A stretch of 64,000 nucleotides of DNA, from NCBI GenBank assembly GCA_000092065.1, contig CP000589.1; one strand, written 5' to 3'. This stretch comes from Ostreococcus lucimarinus (Eukaryota). A program made the translations under genes and the position numbers. A model generated the notes under the pieces. It made no database searches and had not been told where the DNA came from. It saw only the letters and a program-made list of their open reading frames with translations. Numbering within the stretch: position 1 is the stretch's first letter; every line of letters begins with the position of its first letter. This document shows positions 12,352-45,400 of the stretch, in pieces.

Positions 12352-14688
12352 TTACACGCGAAAGGACTTTGCGATCGCCTCGATCGCCTCGATGGCGCTA
12401 GATTCCACCCGGTCGTTGTGTGCGATCGATTGCTTGAGGGCACGGATGATATCGCGCGCGGGCGCGACGGCGGGCGGCGCGGCGCGGAGCCAGTCGGCGG
12501 GGAGGACGTCGACGACGGCTTGAAGCGACGCCGCGCACGCGGCTGGATCCACGAGCTGTAAACGCACGTAAGGGATGACTTGGGCGCCGATGATGCCGTC
12601 GGCGACGATGCGCTGAAGCGCGGCGCGGTCGACAATATCTTCAAACGCGAATGCGCTTCGAACGAGATCCAAAGCGAGTCGGAATTGAGCTTGGGCGTGA
12701 CGTGCGGCGTTTGGCGCGCACGTGGCAACTATTGGCGAATACGTCGGTACCGCGCATTCCTCTGCGCATCGCTTCAGTCGACGTTGTAACGCGATGACAA
12801 TCTCCTTTGCCTCTTCGTTCGCGCTCGGTTCGACGTAGACGAAGATATCCTTGAGCGTAGACGCCAGAGCGCGCGATTGCGCCGGATCTCGCGGTTCCCA
12901 CCACTCTTCCACAGCCTCCGATGCGATCGGTAAAACGACGTGCTGCACCATGTTGGGCAACAAATTCGCATCTTCGTCACCTTCGTCGATTTTTCCATCA
13001 ATCACGCCGTAGTCGAACAGTTGTCCGTACCAAGACATTGCGTCCAACGCGCCTGGCGCAGTTTTCCCAGCGAGCGGAAACAACGGAGACCATCCAATCA
13101 GTTCCAATCGCACGAAAGGAGCGAAGAGATTAGGGACGGAGACCGACATATACGTGCTCTTATACGAACCAAGGTGCGTGCGCTTCCATTCCTCGGCGTG
13201 CCTTTTCACCGCGCTGAGCGTCGAGAACTCTTCTGACGCGTCCTTGAGCATCGAGCTCGCCGCGTCTCTGGCGTCCGCCCAATCTTTGTGAAGCAATCCG
13301 ACCTCGCGTTCGTCCTCAGCGACCGCCATTGCCGTGTCGCTCGACTCACGTCGCTTTGATCGCGCCTTGACTTTTTCCCGCATCGCGATGTTCAAGTCTC
13401 TGCCCATGTCGTCCAACTTTTCACCGTGCAAACCTTTGGCGTTGAACACGGCGTCCCGAATAGCCGTCACCGCAGTCGCCTTCGCCTCGGTCTGCGAACC
13501 GCTGCGTTGTAACACTGCGTTCACCGCTTCCGCCGCGGCTTCCGCTTCGATCGCGCTCTCCTCGAACTCGGCATTCATCGCCTGCGTCAGCGCTTGCGCT
13601 CGTTCCGCGTGGAATTTTCTATAATGCTCCTCGAGCTCGTCTAAGATGAGCTTCTTTTCGTGCAGCATGGCGCACGCGTCTCTAAAGTAATCGCGCAACT
13701 TTTGAGTGAACACGTATCGCTCACTCGCATCCTTGAGCTCCTTCTCGTAAAACGCCAAAGCCTCTTGACTCTTCACCGCGTTTTCGTCGGCGCGAGTCGC
13801 CTCCCTTCTCGCCGTCTCGCTCGACGACTCCGCTGCCTCCAACGCGCGTTTCAAACTTTCGAACGCTTCCATACCACCTCGTTCGATCGAAACCCCAGTA
13901 CCCGCCCGCTCCATCGTCGCTCGCGCGTCCCGAGCGCTTCGACGCATCTCCGGCTCGTCCCTGAACACGCGTTGCAACTGCGCGCGCTCAAACTCATCGT
14001 CGTCGCTCCCCGGCAAGATATCACCCTCCACGTACCCCGCATACCTATCTCGCGCACCACCGTCTCGCACGCTCTTAAACGCCACGCGCTCTCGGCGTCC
14101 GCCGCTAGAATCTAAGTCGACGTAATCCGCCGCCGTCGATTTCGCCCTCGCCGCCTCCCGCTTCGCCTTCGCCTCCGCGATCGTCTTCGCGTCCGGAATC
14201 ACCGTTCCCACCCCCCCCGCCGTCTCGCGCGCCGGCGGCGGCGGCGTCCACGCCTCCGCGCTCGTCCCTCCGAAGACGTCGCTCGCCGACCGTCCCGCCG
14301 TCCCGCTCGCCGCCGCGCCCCCCCTGTCCTCCGGTCGATCTCGCAGCGTCGCCTGCTCGCGCCGCAGCGCCGCCAGCGCCGCCGCGTCGTACGTTCGCGT
14401 CTCCCCCGTCGTCGTCGTCGTCGTCCCTCGTCGCGCGTCCATCGCCGCGACGCCTCGTCGTCTCGTCGCCTTCGCCGCGCGCGCGTCGCCGCCGCCGCCG
14501 CCGTCGTCCTCGTCGTCGTCGCGCGGCGCGTCGTCCTCGAACGACAGCAGCGCGCGCGCGCTCGACGCTTTCTTTCGCGCGCGCGGCGTCGTCGTCGCCG
14601 GCGTCGCGTCGTCGCCGTCGCGCGTCGCGTCGCCGTCGCGCGTTCGATTCGCCGACGACGATTTCGTCGCGCGACGACGGAACGCCAT
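12352..14688 (-). CDS. GC-rich-sequence DNA-binding factor-like (GCFC/PAXBP1/NTR2-type) protein
   Basis: The C-terminal half is collinear with the GCFC domain (YKSTYMSVSVPNLFAPFVRLELIGWSPLF, MSWYGQLFDYG, LLPNMVQHVVLPI, WWEPRDPAQS). The track start 14844 is GTG; the first ATG is at 14688 (MAFRRRATK). Confidence 0.75.
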   Translation of the reverse strand: MAFRRRATKSSSANRTRDGDATRDGDDATPATTTPRARKKASSARALLSFEDDAPRDDDEDDGGGGGDARAAKATRRRGVAAMDARRGTTTTTTGETRTYDAAALAALRREQATLRDRPEDRGGAAASGTAGRSASDVFGGTSAEAWTPPPPARETAGGVGTVIPDAKTIAEAKAKREAARAKSTAADYVDLDSSGGRRERVAFKSVRDGGARDRYAGYVEGDILPGSDDDEFERAQLQRVFRDEPEMRRSARDARATMERAGTGVSIERGGMEAFESLKRALEAAESSSETARREATRADENAVKSQEALAFYEKELKDASERYVFTQKLRDYFRDACAMLHEKKLILDELEEHYRKFHAERAQALTQAMNAEFEESAIEAEAAAEAVNAVLQRSGSQTEAKATAVTAIRDAVFNAKGLHGEKLDDMGRDLNIAMREKVKARSKRRESSDTAMAVAEDEREVGLLHKDWADARDAASSMLKDASEEFSTLSAVKRHAEEWKRTHLGSYKSTYMSVSVPNLFAPFVRLELIGWSPLFPLAGKTAPGALDAMSWYGQLFDYGVIDGKIDEGDEDANLLPNMVQHVVLPIASEAVEEWWEPRDPAQSRALASTLKDIFVYVEPSANEEAKEIVIALQRRLKRCAEECAVPTYSPIVATCAPNAARHAQAQFRLALDLVRSAFAFEDIVDRAALQRIVADGIIGAQVIPYVRLQLVDPAACAASLQAVVDVLPADWLRAAPPAVAPARDIIRALKQSIAHNDRVESSAIEAIEAIAKSFRV

Positions 14689-14804
14689 CGCGACGCGCGC
14701 GCGCGACGACGGCGCGAAAACGACGGAATCGGCGTCGCGCGTCGCGTCGCGAGAGCGCGTCGCGCGCGCGCGTGTGGCGCGTTCATGAATGAATCGATGC
14801 GTCG
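14689..14804. promoter_or_regulatory. 116-bp bidirectional promoter region between head-to-head genes
   Basis: Inferred only from the divergent ATGs at 14688 (-) and 14805 (+). The region contains out-of-frame ATGs at 14785 and 14789. Confidence 0.4.
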
Positions 14805-17800
14805 ATGGCGCGCGCGCGTTCGACGAAACGGCGTCGCCGCACACCGACGCGCGCGCGCGGCGTCGCGCGCATGGAGCGCTCGAGCGCGCCGTCGCGCGCC
14901 GTCGCGTCGACGCGCGCGCGCTCGCGCGCGTCGAGCGCGTCGAGCGACGTCGACGCGTCGCGCGCGGTGTCGAACGCGCTCGCGCGTTTGAAAACGCTCG
15001 CGACGACGACGACGGCGCGGGAATCGCGCGCGCGCGGCGCGGACGTCGCGCGCGCGATCGTGGACGCGTTCGAGGCGCTGGCGCGCGCGGAGGCGCGCGG
15101 AGGACGACGGGCGGAGGGAGACGCGGTGGAGGCGGCGCGACGCGCGGCGCTCGGACGCGCGGCGGACGACGACGAGGGGAGGGAATCGGACGGCGAAAGC
15201 GAGCGCGACGCGCGCGCGGTGGACGCGCTGTATGGATTGCGGCGGGCGGTGCACGCGGAGGGGTGTTCGGGGGACGTGCGGGTGAATTGCGCGCGCGTGG
15301 TGGAGGCGTTCGCGCGCGAGCCGGCGTCGACGACGACGGAGGCTCGGTGGCGCGCGCTCGTGGATTGCGTGCCGAACACGCCGAGGTCGGGACGCGAGAT
15401 CGTGGCGATGGCGTCGCCGAACGCGCGCGTGGGCGTCGGATCGCGGGATTGGGCGTTGAGCGTCGGCGCGGCGTTGGCGACGGCGGCTCGATGGAACGAC
15501 GTCGCGGCGACGGAATTGTTTGAACTCATCGACGATAAGATTCAGGGAGGCGCGGGCGAGCGCGTGGTTGGGTTGACGCTGCTTCACGCCGCGCTCGCCG
15601 TCGATGGTTTAGTCGCGAGCGATGATTTAGTCGTCGCCGTGCACAAGGCGTTGACGGCGGTGAGCGGCGCGCCGGTGGAGAATGGATTCGCGTGCGCGAG
15701 CGTCGGCATGCGTTGCGTGTGCGCGGCGGCGAGGAACCTTTCCATGGGCGACGTCAGGACGTTACGAAGCGCGTGGCTCGAGCCGAGACTGCGTGCTCAA
15801 GGATTTACCTGGCACAGCGCGCAAAGCGACGAGTCGCGCGCGACGCTTTCGCTCATTGAATATTTAAAAATCCCGCGAGACGAGCGGCTCGGCGCGACGG
15901 CGATGTCGGCGTTTTTGATAGCTGATTTGGATCTCGTCGGTTACGTCGACGCCGAGGAGTTCAAACGCAAAGTCGTGCACGGGTCGGTCGATCTGGATAG
16001 TCCGGCGTTTCGCGCGCTCGCGGCGAGCGAACGCGCCGTCGGACGAACCGTCGCGGCGGCAATCATCGCCACGCAAATGAATCTCATTCACACGCTTTAC
16101 GTCGCACCTGGTCAAGAAGATGACGCGGACGAGTTACGGATGAAAGTAGCTACTGAGGGTGGAAGGATTCTGTGCGGTAAAGCTCTCGATTTACTTCGAC
16201 TGGAGCGCGCGAATACGGCGAGTTTGACAGAGAACGCGCAGATGAAGGTTGAGGAGCTGACCACGGATGCTCAACCGAGCACGTTCTTCGGGGTTTTGAG
16301 CTACGCACTGACGACGAACGTGATCGATATCGATGAAAATGAGCGCGCAAAGCTCGTTTCGTGGTGCTGCGACAAATTGAGTGAAAAATTCGTCACCGCG
16401 ACGGATGCTTCGATGCGCGCGATGATCACCTCTGGCTGCTTGAGCGCTCTCTTACGCCTCGCCGAGACATCGGAGAACGCAGCGATGGCGGACGCATGTA
16501 TGCAGTGCGTTTCGGTGCTCATCGATCTGATATTGGTACCTAGCACACTGTACGACTTTGTCGAAATCATAGCCTTCAAAACACCGTCGTTGGATTTACT
16601 CGGCGTTGAGAGCAAGTCAGAGGACGACAAACGAGCGACTTACGTGGTGGCGGCGCTGAATTGGTCGGTGTCTCGTATTCGAGCCTCATCGACGGTTGCA
16701 CAAGCCGACAAATCACTCAACTTATTCAGAAGATTATTTGTCTTGCTCCCGGAAACGGAGCACACGACTTGGTTGGAATATTTCACTGACGCGTACGCGA
16801 GCGCCGCGTTGTGGGCGGGCTGCGTCGAAAAAGAAGTCGCGGTGGATACTGACCGCGTGCTCGCAGATGACGCGGCGCGCAAGTGTGTAGAGTCGTTCGA
16901 AGCTGATATCTCACGCGAGACATCGAAAAAGACGCCAGAGTGGTTGGGAAATCTTCAAACGCGCGCGAGATGGTTGAATGAAGCGTTTGCTGCGCTCGGC
17001 GAAGACGCCTACCTTAGAGCACACTTCACCGCAGACCTCGCCGCAATCGTGTCAAAGTCTGTGGATGTCGGACTCCAAGGTTCGACCGACCCGAAAGTCA
17101 ATGCATCGTACTGGCCATATGAAAGCAAGCGTCCACTCATCGTCCCTCGCGCGCCGCTGGGACCGGGTGGTATTTTGGCGACGTCGGCTGCGACGTTTGA
17201 TCTCATCGCCAAGCAGCTTGAATCGCAATTTCTCGCGATCGAGACGAGTTTGCAGAAATCACTGATGGAACACACTGGTCTAATTCACATGATGACCACG
17301 GTAACATCAGCCGTCGCCGCCGCTGGCGTCGCCATCAAGACACCGGGCGGCGCGAGCGCGGGGCGCGTCGCCGCCGCCGCCGCGCGAGCGCTCGTCCTAG
17401 TGGCGCAATCCATCACGCATCTGCACGTCACTGTTAACTGCAGTGAGATGCAATTGAGAAACGAAGAACGGGAGCTCCTGTTGCTCACCAAACAGTTACT
17501 CGAAGCGTCCAACGTTATGGAGCAAAGGAAGACGCTTGAAGCCGCGCCGGGGGTGCATCGCCGTCGCTACGCCGCGGCCCGCGCGGCGTTGGCTCGCGCC
17601 CTCAGTCTCACCGATGCCTCCTCCGAAGACATCAAATTCGAGCTCAACAAAATTCGCAAGCGTCGACACTCAAAGCGCTGGACGGAAAAGCACCAGCGTC
17701 CACCGACCGCGCCGCGTCCCGCCTCCGCCGTCAACTTCACCGCTCGCGAAGCCGAGCCCGACGACTTCGTCGACGAGGACGGCGTCTCCATACTCGAAGC

Positions 17801-39217: not shown

Positions 39218-42200
39218 ATGTCGCGTCCGTTACCCGCGGGTGCGGCGCTGTTGGACGATCCAAACGCCAGGGCGTCGTTCGACGCGTTCGCGCGCCGCGA
39301 CGGGGTCGCGCGCGATGAAGAAACAGACGAAAACGCGCGCGATGTTGATTTGGATGCATCGGCGTCGCGGCCGAAATTCGCGGCGCTGAACGTCGGCGCG
39401 ACGTTGATGACGCCCGGAGTGGAGTCGGATGATGTGGACGATCGCTTAAAGGCGTTCGTGTTGGGTGGGGGTTCGAACGGGCGCGCAGTCGTGAGCGACG
39501 GCGGCGGCGGCGCGTTCGTCGGGCGGTTGGGCGACGGCGCGCGCGACGGCGTCGATGACGACGCGATCGCGCGGAAGATCTCGAGCGAAAACGCGGAAAC
39601 GTCGACGAGCTTGATCGTCGTGGACGATTGGTGCGGCGAACACTGCGTGATCGGGGTGATGGGTCGAGGCGACGGCGCCGGGGACGGGGCGCGATATTGG
39701 CGGCGAGGTTGGGCGGCGGCGCGGCCGCTCGCGGGTTTGCGTGGCGTGCACTGCACGTGCGCGACGTTCGTCAAGGGGAAAGACGGCGACAACGATGGGG
39801 CAAGGATCCTCTTGGGCTCGAGCGATGGGCGCGTGTTCGACGTGCGCGTGGACGCAGCGGACACGCGACGGTTTGAAAAATCGTGCGAAGTGGCGTTAGA
39901 GTTGCGAGACGGGAAAGCCATCACGGGAGTGTGCGCGACGAAAGATCGCGCGAGCGATGGTAGTGAAAGGTTCGGGGCACTGATTACGACGCCGTCGAAA
40001 TTGTACGCGTTCGTGGGGTCGTATTCATTAGAGTCCGTGCTCGCCATGGCACGCGCCCGACCGAGCGGTTTCGAGGCGGCGGTTGAGATGCCCGTGGAGA
40101 GCGATAGGAGTAAGCTGTGCGTGTGGCGAAAGCGGCGATCATCAACGCCTGATCGCATGGCGTGGCTCACCGGGGCTGGGGTTTATCGCGGGAAGCTGAA
40201 TTTCAAAGTCGACGACGCTTCAAGCGTGTTGGAGCAACACGGCGCGCTCCCCTTTCCAAAACTAGAAGACGACGAATCGGGGAACGACGCCCCGATTTCG
40301 CTTGCGATGACGGAGCATCACATTTTATTGCTATACTCGACGCGTTTGGTGGCCATGAATTCAATCACGGGAGATGTGGAAGGGACGATTAAACTACCCC
40401 TAGGTGGCGCGTCGACATTCGCTTTCACCGATCCTGCGACGTCTGTTCCGTACGCGGCGAACGCAGAGAATTTGCTACAAATCGTCGTTACAAACGAAGA
40501 TGCAAACATGTGGCGAGTGTACTGCGACCAAAATGATTACGACCAAGCGATTACGGCGTGCAAGTCTGATTTACAGCGGCAGTTCGTGTACACTGCTCGA
40601 GCAGAACGCGCGTTGAAATTGAAACGCTTCGACGAAGCCGCGACGGCGTTTGCCAACGCCGGCATCGCGCACGCAATCGAAACGATCGCAAAAACGTTCG
40701 TTGACTTGAACGCAAAAGACGCACTGTATGCGTACATGGAAGGGCGGTTACGCGGCTTACCGCAAGACGATGCGGCACGACGTTTGATCATCGCCATGTG
40801 GTTGCTTGAGGAGTACGTCAAGATTGCGAGCTTCTCTCGCAACGAGGCGAACGACTTCAAGGTTCGAGAGTTTTTGCGAGAAAATTTCGAGAGCCTGGAC
40901 GAACGGGAAGCGTTGCGAATTTTAAGCGAAGCTGGTCGTATCGATGACGAAATTTACTTTGCCGAACTGTGCGGTGATTACGACAGGGTATTGGATCATT
41001 TCATGCAAATCGGCGACGCGAGAAAAACTTTAGAAATCGCGGCTTCGCCTAAAGTACCGCGTTCAACGTTGAATCGAGTGTTGCCGACACTCATTAAGGC
41101 ACTGCCAAAAGACTCGATCGATTTCATGCTATCACGCCCGAAGACGGATGACGATGTGAAAATTATAGAGGCTTTGGCTCGCGACGATGCGTCCTACGCG
41201 GCGTCAGAGACGAGTGAATCGCTGGCTGCATACTTGACGAGATATTTAGAGTCCATCACGGCGAAACCGGACGGCGCAGCTCGCGGCGACGCCACGGTGC
41301 ACGATCTTCTGCTCGATGTGTACATCAAACAGCTAGAATCCTCACCCACCGTGGTGGCAACGTTGAACAAGTACATACTCGACGCCGTGGATGAAAGCAC
41401 TAATGCGCCGTACTACGACGTACATTATGCGATTCGTATGTGCGAAAAACATGGCGCACATCGAAGCGCTGTGTACGCATACTGTGTATCTCGGGATTTT
41501 GACATGGCCATGCACGTCGCGTTGACGACGCTTCAAGATGTGGAGTTGGCAAAAACCGTGACGAAAAAAGCCGCCGAGTCGAAATCAGATGATCCAAACG
41601 AAGACGAAATCACGCAGAAAAAACTGTGGATTGAGATTGCAAAGTGGTCGATTCGCAAGTCTGGTGCACTGGACAAGGCAATGGCATCGATGGACGAAGA
41701 CGAAAAGCGCACCGCGATTCGCAGCGCGCTGAGCTTTTTGAATGAAACCAACGGCGCGTTGCGTGTGGAGGACATTCTTCCTCTCCTTCCCGACTTCACC
41801 ATCATCGACGACGTGAAGGACTTGGTGCTGCAGTCTCTCACAGAGCATCGAACGGAGATCGAACAATTGAAAGAAGGCCTAGAAGAGATCACCGCCTTCA
41901 CGCAAGACGTCCAGGACGATATCGAGGAGATGGAACAGAAAACCATCGTCATCTCCAAGGATACGAAGTGCTTTGAATGCGGCAAGCCTGTGGTGCGTTT
42001 GCGTCTGATGGAGACGGCGGATGATCCAAACTTACTCGCCCCTTTCTATGTCTTTCCGTGCGAGATGGCGTATCACACTGAGTGCCTACTCCGACGCACG
42101 CTACCTCTCATGCTCATCGATCAACGCAAACGAGCGTTGGCGCTCATGCGTGCGCTCAAGGTGCCGCTCCCGCGACGGCTCAAGCCCGAGACAAAGTTTT

Positions 42201-42598: not shown

Positions 42599-43876
42599 AT
42601 GCATCGCGCCCTCGCTCGAACTTCTCTGCGGGTATCGCGTCACGACTTAACGACATCAATCTCCAGTCCCGCGTCGCACGCGCGTCGTCGCGCGATGCCC
42701 GCGCTGTCGTCCCGAGCCGACGCCGACTCGAAATCTGTCCCCACCGGGTCGCGAGAGCCACACTTTCGGTTCGGTTTGCTCGCCGACATACAGTACTGCG
42801 ACGGCGACGACCGCAAAAACATCACCGGAACGCAAATGCGGAGGTACAGGAACACGCTGAACGTCGCGGAACGGGCGGTGGAGTATTTTAACACGCACGA
42901 GTGTGACTTTTTGGTGCACAACGGAGACATCACCGACCACCAGTGCGCGTTTGATTTCGCGAGCGATGATTTTAAGCCCATCGAGCGCGGAAGAGAGGAT
43001 TTAGGGGCGGTGATGCGGATATTGAGCCGAGCGAAGTGCGCGGAGTGGTTGTTCACGGTTGGGAATCACGAGCTGTATAATTTTACGCGAGAGGAGTTGC
43101 GCCAAGGCGTGGCGAGTCCTGGGAATTCGTTGAATTTGAAATGCTCGAACGCGGATGGGGAGTTTTATTACTCCTTCAAAGCCGGACCGGGATGGCGAGT
43201 GATGGTGCTGGATCCGTACGCGGTGAGTATTTATCGCAAAGGTCGCCAGCAAGGGCTGTGCGAGGAAGCGGTGGAGCTGTTGCGCAAGCACAACCCAAAC
43301 GTCGACTTGTTCGTCAAGGAAAATCCAGACGTGATAGAGACCGAACGCATGAGCGGGACTTTTCCGTACTTCAAAGACATCGAGGGGCTGGCTGGGCGAT
43401 GGGTGCCGTTTAACGGAGGATTGGGGAAAGAGCAAATCGCCTGGGCTCGCGAGACGATTCGCGCCGCGAGCGCCGCAGACGAAAAGGTATTAATCTTCTC
43501 TCACTTGCTCATCCACCCGCACTCCACGGCGAAAAGATCGGGCAAGACTTTGATGTGGGACTACGACGAAATTTTAGAAATTATCGAGGCCGAGGAAACG
43601 CGAGGGTGCGTGAAGTGCGTAGTCTCCGGCCACCAACACGAAGGCACAAAGTGGCAGTGCGAGAAAACGGGCGTGCATTACATCGGCATGGAGAGCCCGA
43701 TGCTAGCCATGGACGTGTCCCCGGGACCATTTGCCATCGTTGAAGTCTTCGATGATGAAATTGTATTCAAAGGGTACGGGCGAAACGAGGACTCGCTCTT
43801 ATTCCCTTTCGATCCAGAAGAACCACCGACGGAGCCGTTGTTGTGCAGTCTTCGTGTGAATTCGCATGATCCTTAG
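42599..43876 (+). CDS. Mn-dependent ADP-ribose/CDP-alcohol diphosphatase-like metallophosphoesterase
   Basis: Motifs: FRFGLLADIQYCDGDD, LVHNGDITD, FTVGNHELYNF, VVSGHQHEG, collinear with ADPRibase-Mn. The track start 42596 is GTG; ATG at 42599. Confidence 0.75.
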   Translation: MHRALARTSLRVSRHDLTTSISSPASHARRRAMPALSSRADADSKSVPTGSREPHFRFGLLADIQYCDGDDRKNITGTQMRRYRNTLNVAERAVEYFNTHECDFLVHNGDITDHQCAFDFASDDFKPIERGREDLGAVMRILSRAKCAEWLFTVGNHELYNFTREELRQGVASPGNSLNLKCSNADGEFYYSFKAGPGWRVMVLDPYAVSIYRKGRQQGLCEEAVELLRKHNPNVDLFVKENPDVIETERMSGTFPYFKDIEGLAGRWVPFNGGLGKEQIAWARETIRAASAADEKVLIFSHLLIHPHSTAKRSGKTLMWDYDEILEIIEAEETRGCVKCVVSGHQHEGTKWQCEKTGVHYIGMESPMLAMDVSPGPFAIVEVFDDEIVFKGYGRNEDSLLFPFDPEEPPTEPLLCSLRVNSHDP

Positions 43877-43945
43877 AGCGCCCATCACACCACGTGTTGT
43901 ATTACTTTTACAATCCTTGTTAGTCATATTCTGTCGCTTTGCGAT

Positions 43946-44023
43946 CGTCGCGCGCTTTCATCGGACGAAATCTCAGACGCAATGGCGTCTTTTGCGATTT
44001 CGTCGTCACGCGCGCGCGGACGT
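43946..44023 (-). promoter_or_regulatory. type-2 SECIS-like stem-loop in the MsrA 3'UTR
   Basis: Minus-strand RNA: CGCGCGCG-UGA-C-GACGAAAUC-GCAAA-AGACGC-CAUU-GCGUCU-GA-GAUUUCGUC-C-GAU-GAAA-GCGCGCG. It has a 9-bp helix II, an AAA bulge 12 nt after the UGA, a 6-bp helix III with a tetraloop, tandem G.A/A.G plus U.U quartet positions, and a GC-rich helix I. The 5' core is GUGA rather than the canonical AUGA. Confidence 0.5.
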
Positions 44024-44064
44024 CGCTGCGCGAAAACAAATCTACTACTTTGACGCGACGAAAA

Positions 44065-44673
44065 TCACCACCCGAAACGCGACACGCGCGGTTTATTGTA
44101 GTACTTTTGATGGTACTCTTCGGCATCCCACCACGGTGTCGCTAAAGAGACCTCCGGCGGGTAGATATCGGTGAAGAACTTTCGCTGCACTTGCTTCTCG
44201 CGCGCTTCCTTGGACGCCACCGCTTTTTCGTACTGCTCGGGCGTCTGCGCCCAAATAGCGCTCTTATACTGCGCTTTGCTTTCGTACGTGGGTTGATGCT
44301 CGCTCCAAAACTGTTCCAACAGCTTATCGAAGCTCGTCGTCGCCGCGTCGTACGCCACGTAATACCCCTCCGTGTGCCCGGTTCCTCCGGCACACACCGC
44401 TGAATACGTCGGGAAATCGCTCTCGCCTCCTGTGTACCCGACCCTGACGTTCTTCACGCCCTTGAGCGCGCTGAACGAGGCGTCGGGCCCCCAAAATCAC
44501 CCAGAGGCGAAGACGGCGAGTTGGCAATTTTCCGGGACGACGAAACCATCGCCGCGGTCGGTGCGCCGCGCGTCCTTGCTCGCGGGCATCGCGGCGAGCG
44601 CGCGGACGTTTCTTTTGTTCGCGGACGCGCGCGAGGGAGCGGCGACGCGCGCGGTCGCGACGGCAGCGCGCAT
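44065..44673 (-). CDS. MSRA: peptide methionine sulfoxide reductase A with in-frame TGA (predicted selenocysteine) at the catalytic position
   Basis: Track ORFs 44497..44934 and 44065..44457 are in the same frame, separated by TGA at 44499-44497. Read-through gives ..QLAVFASG-U-FWGPDASFSALKGVKNVRVGYTGGESDFPTYSAVCAGGTGHTE.., which is the MsrA GCFWG active site with U in place of C. Candidate starts are ATG 44673 (transit-like) or 44589. Confidence 0.75.
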
Positions 44674-44705: not shown

Positions 44706-44743
44706 CAGATTTCGACCGCGCGGGCGCGCGCGGTCGAAATCTG
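44706..44743. other. perfect 17-bp inverted repeat with 4-nt loop
   Basis: cagatttcgaccgcgcg ggcg cgcgcggtcgaaatctg. It lies 33 nt upstream of MsrA ATG 44673 and about 100 nt downstream of the stop of the upstream tandem gene. Confidence 0.85.
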
Positions 44744-44845: not shown

Positions 44846-45400
44846 TCAGCGCAGGATGACCAGAGACCAATCCGGGAACTTTGCGTTCCAGTATCGAACG
44901 CCCATCTGCGCGAGCGTTCGCGAGTTATCGTCAAACTTCTTCCCCGCGTACGCCAAGCGCACGAGCCCCGGCATGACTCCAGTTTTATCCGCGATGAGCT
45001 TTTTCACCTCGTTCACGCGCGTGGTGTCCGAGACGTCGATCCAGAACGGCCCTCCGTACTCGCAGTCGACGTGCAGCATGCTCGTGACGAGCAGACGCAG
45101 CGTCTTCGGCGGCTTTCTCATCGCCGCCACTTTCGCGTCGATGAAGCTCCCGAGCGGAATCCCTTTCGCCACGGCCTCGGCTTTATCCTTCAAGTATTCC
45201 TCGCGCGTCGGATCGTACATGGGCGTCCACTCCGAGCTCACCCCTCCCTCCCCGCGCGTCGCCGGCGCGTACCTCTCATCCTCCTCGTACCACGGGTACC
45301 CACCGTTCGGCGGGATCGTCGCCGTCGCCCCCGACCCCCCGGTCCCGGGCGCGTTGTTATACTTTGAAAACGCGAGGTCCGAGCTTCGATACGTCGGCAT
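44846..45400 (-). CDS. hypothetical protein with C-terminal ubiquitin-like fold
   Basis: ATG at 45400. The C-terminal ~85 aa (LRLLVTSML..FWIDVSDTTRVNEVKKLIADKTGVMPGLVRLAYAGKKFDDNSRTLAQMGV) follow the ubiquitin-fold pattern. Confidence 0.55.
   Translation of the reverse strand: MPTYRSSDLAFSKYNNAPGTGGSGATATIPPNGGYPWYEEDERYAPATRGEGGVSSEWTPMYDPTREEYLKDKAEAVAKGIPLGSFIDAKVAAMRKPPKTLRLLVTSMLHVDCEYGGPFWIDVSDTTRVNEVKKLIADKTGVMPGLVRLAYAGKKFDDNSRTLAQMGVRYWNAKFPDWSLVILR

Follow-up and report, generated by a model that had tools for sequence, protein, structure and literature searches.

The minus strand of a 64,000-nucleotide stretch of Ostreococcus lucimarinus DNA, referred to below as the window, carries a gene for peptide methionine-S-sulfoxide reductase (MsrA) with a single internal UGA, and the question raised by this locus is whether a hairpin beyond the stop codon of the gene is the SECIS element through which this UGA would be read as selenocysteine (Sec). 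In SECIS elements, the unpaired purine that precedes the quartet is A in most eukaryotes; in Ostreococcus and Chlamydomonas, as in some animal genes, G is found there instead. Sec-MsrA, the GUGA core and the long mini-stem of Ostreococcus have been known since 2007, when MsrA was listed in Table 2 of a survey among 29 O. lucimarinus selenoproteins (Lobanov et al., 2007, Genome Biol 8:R198; PMC2375036). The same survey described no type I SECIS elements, a long mini-stem as characteristic of O. tauri and O. lucimarinus, and G before the quartet in all O. lucimarinus elements but one, the single ATGA-type element being that of the glutathione peroxidase (GPx) gene; 75Se labelling was reported for O. 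tauri as a whole (PMC2375036). The GUGA_AA pattern has been noted in Chlamydomonas and both Ostreococcus species (PMC3473315), and GUGA_AA and GUGA_GA are common in Chlamydomonas and Ostreococcus (PMC3473315; PMC11227280).

Here, we report an analysis of the hairpin at 44023-43946 (minus strand) by folding, pattern search, covariance models and comparison with orthologous loci. It is almost certainly the form-2 SECIS of the O. lucimarinus selenoprotein MsrA mRNA. The value of the analysis lies chiefly in annotation, since gene callers cut MsrA at the Sec UGA and Rfam misses its SECIS; as a result of these two failures, pipelines will keep mis-annotating selenoprotein genes of Ostreococcus, Bathycoccus and Micromonas-like algae.

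Sequences, alignments and models

The orthologous loci comprised 12 from a protein-guided contig search and 80 metagenome loci, with protein identities from 99% down to 43%. From these approximately 90 syntenic or homologous loci, 24 distinct lineage sequences were inspected, with 20 distinct elements. The structure-blind MAFFT alignment of the elements (A3) has three misaligned divergent rows (L011, L091 and L093), which are inherited by the covariance model R1; for this reason, a core-anchored count, a clean leave-out alignment (A5) and a second model (R2) were added. R2 was built from 15 elements of other lineages, the O. lucimarinus sequences being left out. The home-made SECIS pattern combined (A/G)UGA with an AA located 10-14 nt beyond the core and a GA on the 3' side; helix I had to have 4 bp or more, and helix II at least 9 of 11 positions paired. 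For comparison, the SECISearch spacing places the unpaired AA 10-13 nt after the core (PMC2375036).

Structure of the hairpin

The complete element, from helix I to helix I', occupies 43946-44023 on the minus strand, as delimited by the sequence itself, RNAfold, the pattern search and R2, and its 5' end (44023) lies 42 nt past the MsrA stop. In the RNAfold minimum-free-energy structure, helix I (6 + 4 bp) pairs 44022-44019 and 44017-44012 with 43955-43950 and 43949-43946; its 5' strand (44012-44022) reads CGUC-C-GCGCGC and its 3' strand (43946-43955) reads GCGCGC-GACG, the latter being preceded by an unpaired GAAA (43959-43956). The core has on its 5' side G44009 followed by UGA (44008-44006), as seen in the sequence and in the orthologues, and on its 3' side GA (43962-43961) and U43960, the partner of the core U, as seen in the orthologues. 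Directly above the core, C44005 stands opposite C43963, either unpaired or as a C.C pair, and helix II follows with 9 perfect base pairs between GACGAAAUC (43996-44004) and GAUUUCGUC (43964-43972), both strands of which are supported by sequence, RNAfold and covariation. The internal loop consists of GC and AAAA (43995-43990). Its A-run (43990-43993), which bears the conserved unpaired AA, begins 12 nt after the core as counted from A44006 to the first A, and its last base, A43990, is also the first base of helix III. This mini-stem (43975-43990) is formed in RNAfold by 6 bp between AGACGC (43990-43985) and GCGUCU (43980-43975), and is completed by an apical CAUU loop (43984-43981) and a GA bulge (43974-43973).

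An earlier note on this DNA, made from its letters alone, had proposed a type-2 SECIS-like hairpin at this distance from the MsrA stop, with helix I, a UGA/GAU core, a 9-bp helix II plus C.C, a 6-bp helix III with a CAUU loop and an A-run 12 nt after the core. All of these parts are present base for base where they had been placed, and the folding that the note had suggested as a check reproduces helices I, II and III at -38.8 kcal/mol (z-score -3.9; none of 200 dinucleotide shuffles was as stable). Since sheared G.A pairs are outside its energy model, RNAfold draws the core as closed by C-G, G.U and U-A pairs; tandem sheared G.A/A.G pairs with a U.U pair are the predicted geometry of the core.

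Two features that the note had singled out are to be read differently. The G before the UGA had been called atypical, but it is the norm in Ostreococcus (PMC2375036) and is found in 17 of the 20 orthologous elements. Moreover, since the lone ATGA-type element of O. lucimarinus belongs to GPx (PMC2375036), the MsrA SECIS must be of the G type, as was found. The AUGA on the 3' strand is indeed there (within GAUGA, 43962-43958), but the orthologues do not keep it: only its GAU is invariant among them, and on this comparison the 3'-strand AUGA is incidental.

Gene neighbourhood and the mRNA 3' end

The plus-strand ORF that converges on MsrA encodes a calcineurin-like phosphoesterase (Pfam Metallophos) and ends at 43876, leaving between the two convergent genes a spacer of 188 bp (43877-44064), the length given in the earlier note. 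The upstream neighbour is a gene for a 184-aa ubiquitin-like protein (44846-45400, minus strand); this protein and an alpha/beta hydrolase, also encoded in the window, are identical to O. lucimarinus CCE9901 XP_001419754.1 and XP_001419533.1.

UGUAA is the dominant poly(A) signal in O. lucimarinus (PMC6413133). Within the 265 nt past the MsrA stop (44064-43800), it occurs only once on the MsrA strand, at 43912-43908, 34 nt beyond the SECIS, where it probably serves the MsrA mRNA as poly(A) signal; the same-strand scan found no UGUAA between the MsrA stop and the SECIS. This placement agrees with the SECIS forming part of the MsrA mRNA.

Conservation and covariation

A layout identical to that of O. 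lucimarinus was found in almost all lineages, with the 3'UTR element 31-93 nt past the stop, and the Sec UGA at G*FW(G/H) is kept in all 24 of the distinct lineage sequences inspected. Where the loci from the contig search are long enough to show neighbours, they have the order ubiquitin-like gene, MsrA and convergent Metallophos gene; the convergent Metallophos gene by itself was seen in three further loci, and the upstream ubiquitin-like and hydrolase genes accompany MsrA in several orthologous contigs.

Anchored on the core, the 20 distinct elements have UGA and GAU without exception (20/20 each). Seventeen of them have G before the quartet and three have A; UGA is followed by C in 19 elements and by U in the other, and the base facing this position, before GA, is a pyrimidine. 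The invariant columns of the clean alignment A5 are exactly UGA, G20, AA and GAU. The helix II sequences, on the other hand, diverge and yet pair (GACGAAAUC, GGUGACAUUG, GACGCGCGCG, GAGCGCGUCG, GGCGGCGCAG and GAGCGAGGCU), with approximately 94% of cells paired in the core-anchored count. Even in the structure-blind alignment A3, 87% of helix II cells are paired and 8 of its 10 pairs have compensatory changes, and the alignment fitted by the covariance model concurs (90% of cells paired; 8/10 pairs changed on both sides). The mini-stem has two-sided changes at 6/6 pairs in A3, and at 5 or 6 of 6 across alignments. The covariation score of A3 was 0.50, compared with 0.24 for shuffles, none of 500 of which reached 0.50, and at most 0.27 in slid registers. 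For helix I, just 56% of cells are paired in the alignments, because loop lengths differ; taken singly, every orthologue forms a contiguous stack of 3-15 bp.

The orthologues also bear on which strand is folded. In O. lucimarinus, G.U pairs are absent from helices II and III, and the antisense strand would thus form an equivalent hairpin; the strand assignment therefore rests on the core motifs and the orthologues, whose frequent G.U pairs indicate that the folded strand is the MsrA sense strand. We accordingly weighed whether the SECIS has a second, antisense role, either as a 3'UTR hairpin of the convergent mRNA, which encodes a protein resembling ADP-ribose/CDP-alcohol diphosphatase, or as a bidirectional transcription stop. 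The position is suggestive, with just 70 nt separating the SECIS from the convergent stop codon, and as all helix II and III pairs are Watson-Crick in O. lucimarinus, the antisense strand would fold equally well. The many G.U pairs of the orthologues, however, become A.C mismatches on the antisense strand, and no conserved antisense motif was seen, so that we regard such a role as improbable.

Pattern search and covariance models

The home-made pattern matched once in the 64-kb window, both strands included, at 43946-44023 (minus strand). Markov-shuffled windows gave 0.8 matches per 64 kb, and the pattern alone is thus not rare genome-wide; within the 188-nt MsrA 3'UTR, the chance of a match is roughly 0.001 (approximately 0.8 x 188/128000). 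Neither the pattern scan nor models R1 and R2 found a second SECIS in the window.

With all filters off, R2 matched exactly 43946-44023 (minus strand) at 49.1 bits (E of approximately 6e-10 over the whole window), and its next best match in the window scored 11.7 bits (E 0.56); a clade-specific model therefore parts the true element from the background by approximately 37 bits. R1 found the element of L015, a sequence absent from its training set, at 46 bits (1890-1974). The second-best match of R1 in the window, at 41832-41907 (minus strand; 17.3 bits, E 0.016), combines a 9-bp helix with the motifs GUGA and CGAU. We rejected it as a SECIS: it lies antisense in a Vps18-like coding sequence, is without helix I and gave no R2 match at E <= 1, and is probably a chance match.

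The Rfam models behaved differently. No Rfam release 15 SECIS family reached the gathering score over the whole window in cmscan, and none matched at E <= 10 in the 251 nt of 43850-44100. The same was true at E <= 10 of seven orthologous loci, those of the AUGA type included; because conserved orthologues with a canonical AUGA were missed as well, the Rfam negative carries no weight, and the Rfam SECIS models appear insensitive to this clade. The gathering score is in any case the cut-off of a classifier rather than a property by which a SECIS is defined biologically. The sole Rfam matches (CRISPR-DR28, isrK, eL15 leader and asX3) were rejected as chance. The earlier note had held that a covariance-model score below threshold, together with a better SECIS elsewhere in the 3'UTR, would count against its proposal; the former was literally what Rfam returned, but the latter was not seen, as the pattern scan found no better SECIS elsewhere in the MsrA 3'UTR.

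Could the hairpin nevertheless be a generic GC-rich 3'-end or termination hairpin between convergent genes, with coincidental SECIS motifs and no role in Sec insertion? A spacer of so few base pairs between convergent genes, the number of pattern matches expected by chance, the lack of an Rfam SECIS match and the fact that either strand would fold in O. lucimarinus all speak for it. It is nonetheless very improbable, since what stays invariant in the 20 elements is exactly the set of motifs that define a SECIS (UGA, AA and GAU), against helices that vary with compensation, the element is in every case found with an MsrA whose catalytic site has UGA, and the G.U pairs of the orthologues tie the structure to the MsrA sense strand. 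In addition, this MsrA requires a SECIS, and no other candidate is present.

The MsrA gene and its Sec codon

The MsrA coding sequence spans 44065-44673 on the minus strand, where the first in-frame ATG (44673) was inferred to be the start and the UGA at 44067-44065 is the stop. Its read-through translation has 202 residues, including one Sec at the in-frame UGA (44497-44499), which stands in FASG*FWGP at the catalytic G-(C/U)-FWG position. With Cys substituted at the UGA, residues 53-195 match Pfam PMSR (E 1.3e-38), and the reading frame is unbroken on either side of the codon. As judged from its PMSR domain, the UGA in place of the catalytic GCFWG Cys and the SECIS in its 3'UTR, 44673-44065 is a selenoprotein MsrA gene. 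The first 45 or so residues (MRAAVATARVAAPSRASANKRNVRALAAMPASKDARRTDRGDGF..., 44538-44673, minus strand), which lie N-terminal to the PMSR domain, have a high content of Ala, Arg and Ser and look like a putative organelle-targeting peptide.

In every public assembly examined, MsrA is split or shortened at the Sec UGA; the pieces are, for example, ORFs of 58 and 97 aa or fragments of 130-136 aa (L001, 2957-3565; proteins P0001-P0010). A search with the MsrA protein following Sec likewise returned a series of shortened hits of 97-136 aa with 45-98% identity, which is the signature of gene callers halting at the Sec UGA. This recurrent splitting is a systematic mis-annotation of a selenoprotein. 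The converse, that MsrA is a pseudogene or two short ORFs whose UGA is a real stop, leaving the hairpin with nothing to recode, is what the separate 58-aa and 97-aa or 130-aa ORFs of the automatic callers would imply, but it deserves hardly any credence: the UGA falls precisely on the GCFWG catalytic Cys in a frame continuous on both sides, MsrA is published as an O. lucimarinus selenoprotein (PMC2375036), and the arrangement is retained down to 43% protein identity, which argues for purifying selection on the whole read-through ORF.

Proposed mechanism and comparison with known SECIS elements

We propose that the G-UGA/GA-U core of the MsrA SECIS would form a kink-turn of tandem sheared G.A/A.G pairs with a U.U pair, to be bound by SECIS-binding protein 2 (SBP2), and that the unpaired A-run 12 nt above the core, together with the mini-stem, would complete the recognition surface. 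The complex would then recruit eEFSec with Sec-tRNA(Sec) to ribosomes at the UGA (44499-44497), approximately 490 nt upstream, so that selenocysteine would be inserted at the catalytic G-U-FWG position rather than translation being terminated. For the MsrA SECIS, we infer SBP2 binding and Sec insertion from the established eukaryotic Sec pathway. A tRNA scan found no tRNA genes in the 64-kb window, and hence no tRNA-Sec there, a result that is uninformative at this window size.

The element has the features of a form-2 SECIS in its 3'UTR site, UGA/GA-U core, pre-quartet purine, AA spacing and helices I and III. With the metazoan form-2 SECIS (AUGA_AA_GA; Rfam SECIS_1, RF00031), it has in common helix I, the internal loop, the UGA/GA quartet of sheared tandem G.A pairs, a helix II of approximately one turn, an unpaired AA 10-13 nt after the core, a mini-helix with a small apical loop and a site in the 3'UTR. 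In contrast to the metazoan elements, the O. lucimarinus MsrA element has G before the quartet and a very GC-rich helix I, its mini-stem of 6 bp is at the long end of the range, and it gives no match to the Rfam models even at E <= 10. From the published Ostreococcus SECIS elements it has no substantive difference, sharing with them the type II layout, the unpaired G before the quartet and the long mini-stem; the identity with these elements follows from gene and species rather than from a base-by-base comparison (PMC2375036). The Sec-MsrA of Chlamydomonas reinhardtii is likewise green-algal and has Sec at the catalytic position (cited in PMC2375036). Chlamydomonas SECIS elements, from a different green-algal class and likened here by description, are reported to have GUGA-type cores and long mini-stems (PMC3473315; PMC2375036).

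The Mamiellophyceae MsrA elements form a series with an invariant extended core, (G/A)UGA-C-G ... Y-GAU. AUGA takes the place of GUGA in L004, L023, L042, L082 and L086, that is, in three lineage groups (L004/L023, L042 and L082/L086), with G in the rest, and some of these AUGA-type orthologues are 82-83% identical in protein to O. lucimarinus MsrA. If the switches between G and A were independent, they would amount to a natural mutational series, in which the SBP2 of these algae would not discriminate G from A. An extended core with such a natural G/A series, or else a second use of the element in ending the convergent phosphoesterase transcript, as its 3'-end hairpin or terminator, is a reading that we consider unlikely, if worth stating.

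Further observations

In a low-GC lineage (L012, L013, L051 and L055), the SECIS is nested within a much longer outer helix, in which UUUUUUCUUCUU...GUGAACGCGCGCGCG pairs with CGUGCGUGUUUGCGCG...AGAAGAAAAAAA, the whole structure having -58 kcal/mol; the 3'UTR of this lineage also carries a CT-dinucleotide repeat just past the stop codon. In the more distant lineage L015, the SECIS falls inside a called ORF of 178 aa (1501-2037), whose C-terminal 50 or so residues are without counterpart in other MsrA sequences; probably, the called ORF extends beyond the real stop or a frameshift is present in the contig.

An inverted repeat of 17 perfect bp, its arms 4 nt apart (CAGATTTCGACCGCGCG / CGCGCGGTCGAAATCTG), lies at 44706-44743, in the intergenic region between the stop of the ubiquitin-like gene (44846) and the MsrA start (44673). 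It has the string GATTTCG in common with SECIS helix II; despite this, we rejected it as a relative of the SECIS, as it is without the UGA/GA core motifs. In five orthologous loci, the search upstream of MsrA turned up no comparable repeat; that of O. lucimarinus may form a hairpin in the 3'UTR of the upstream gene, or act as a promoter element. Along the window, whose GC content is approximately 0.60, there is a GC spike of 0.716 at 14001-16000, and stretches of low GC (0.50-0.53) lie at 24-26 kb and 50-54 kb.
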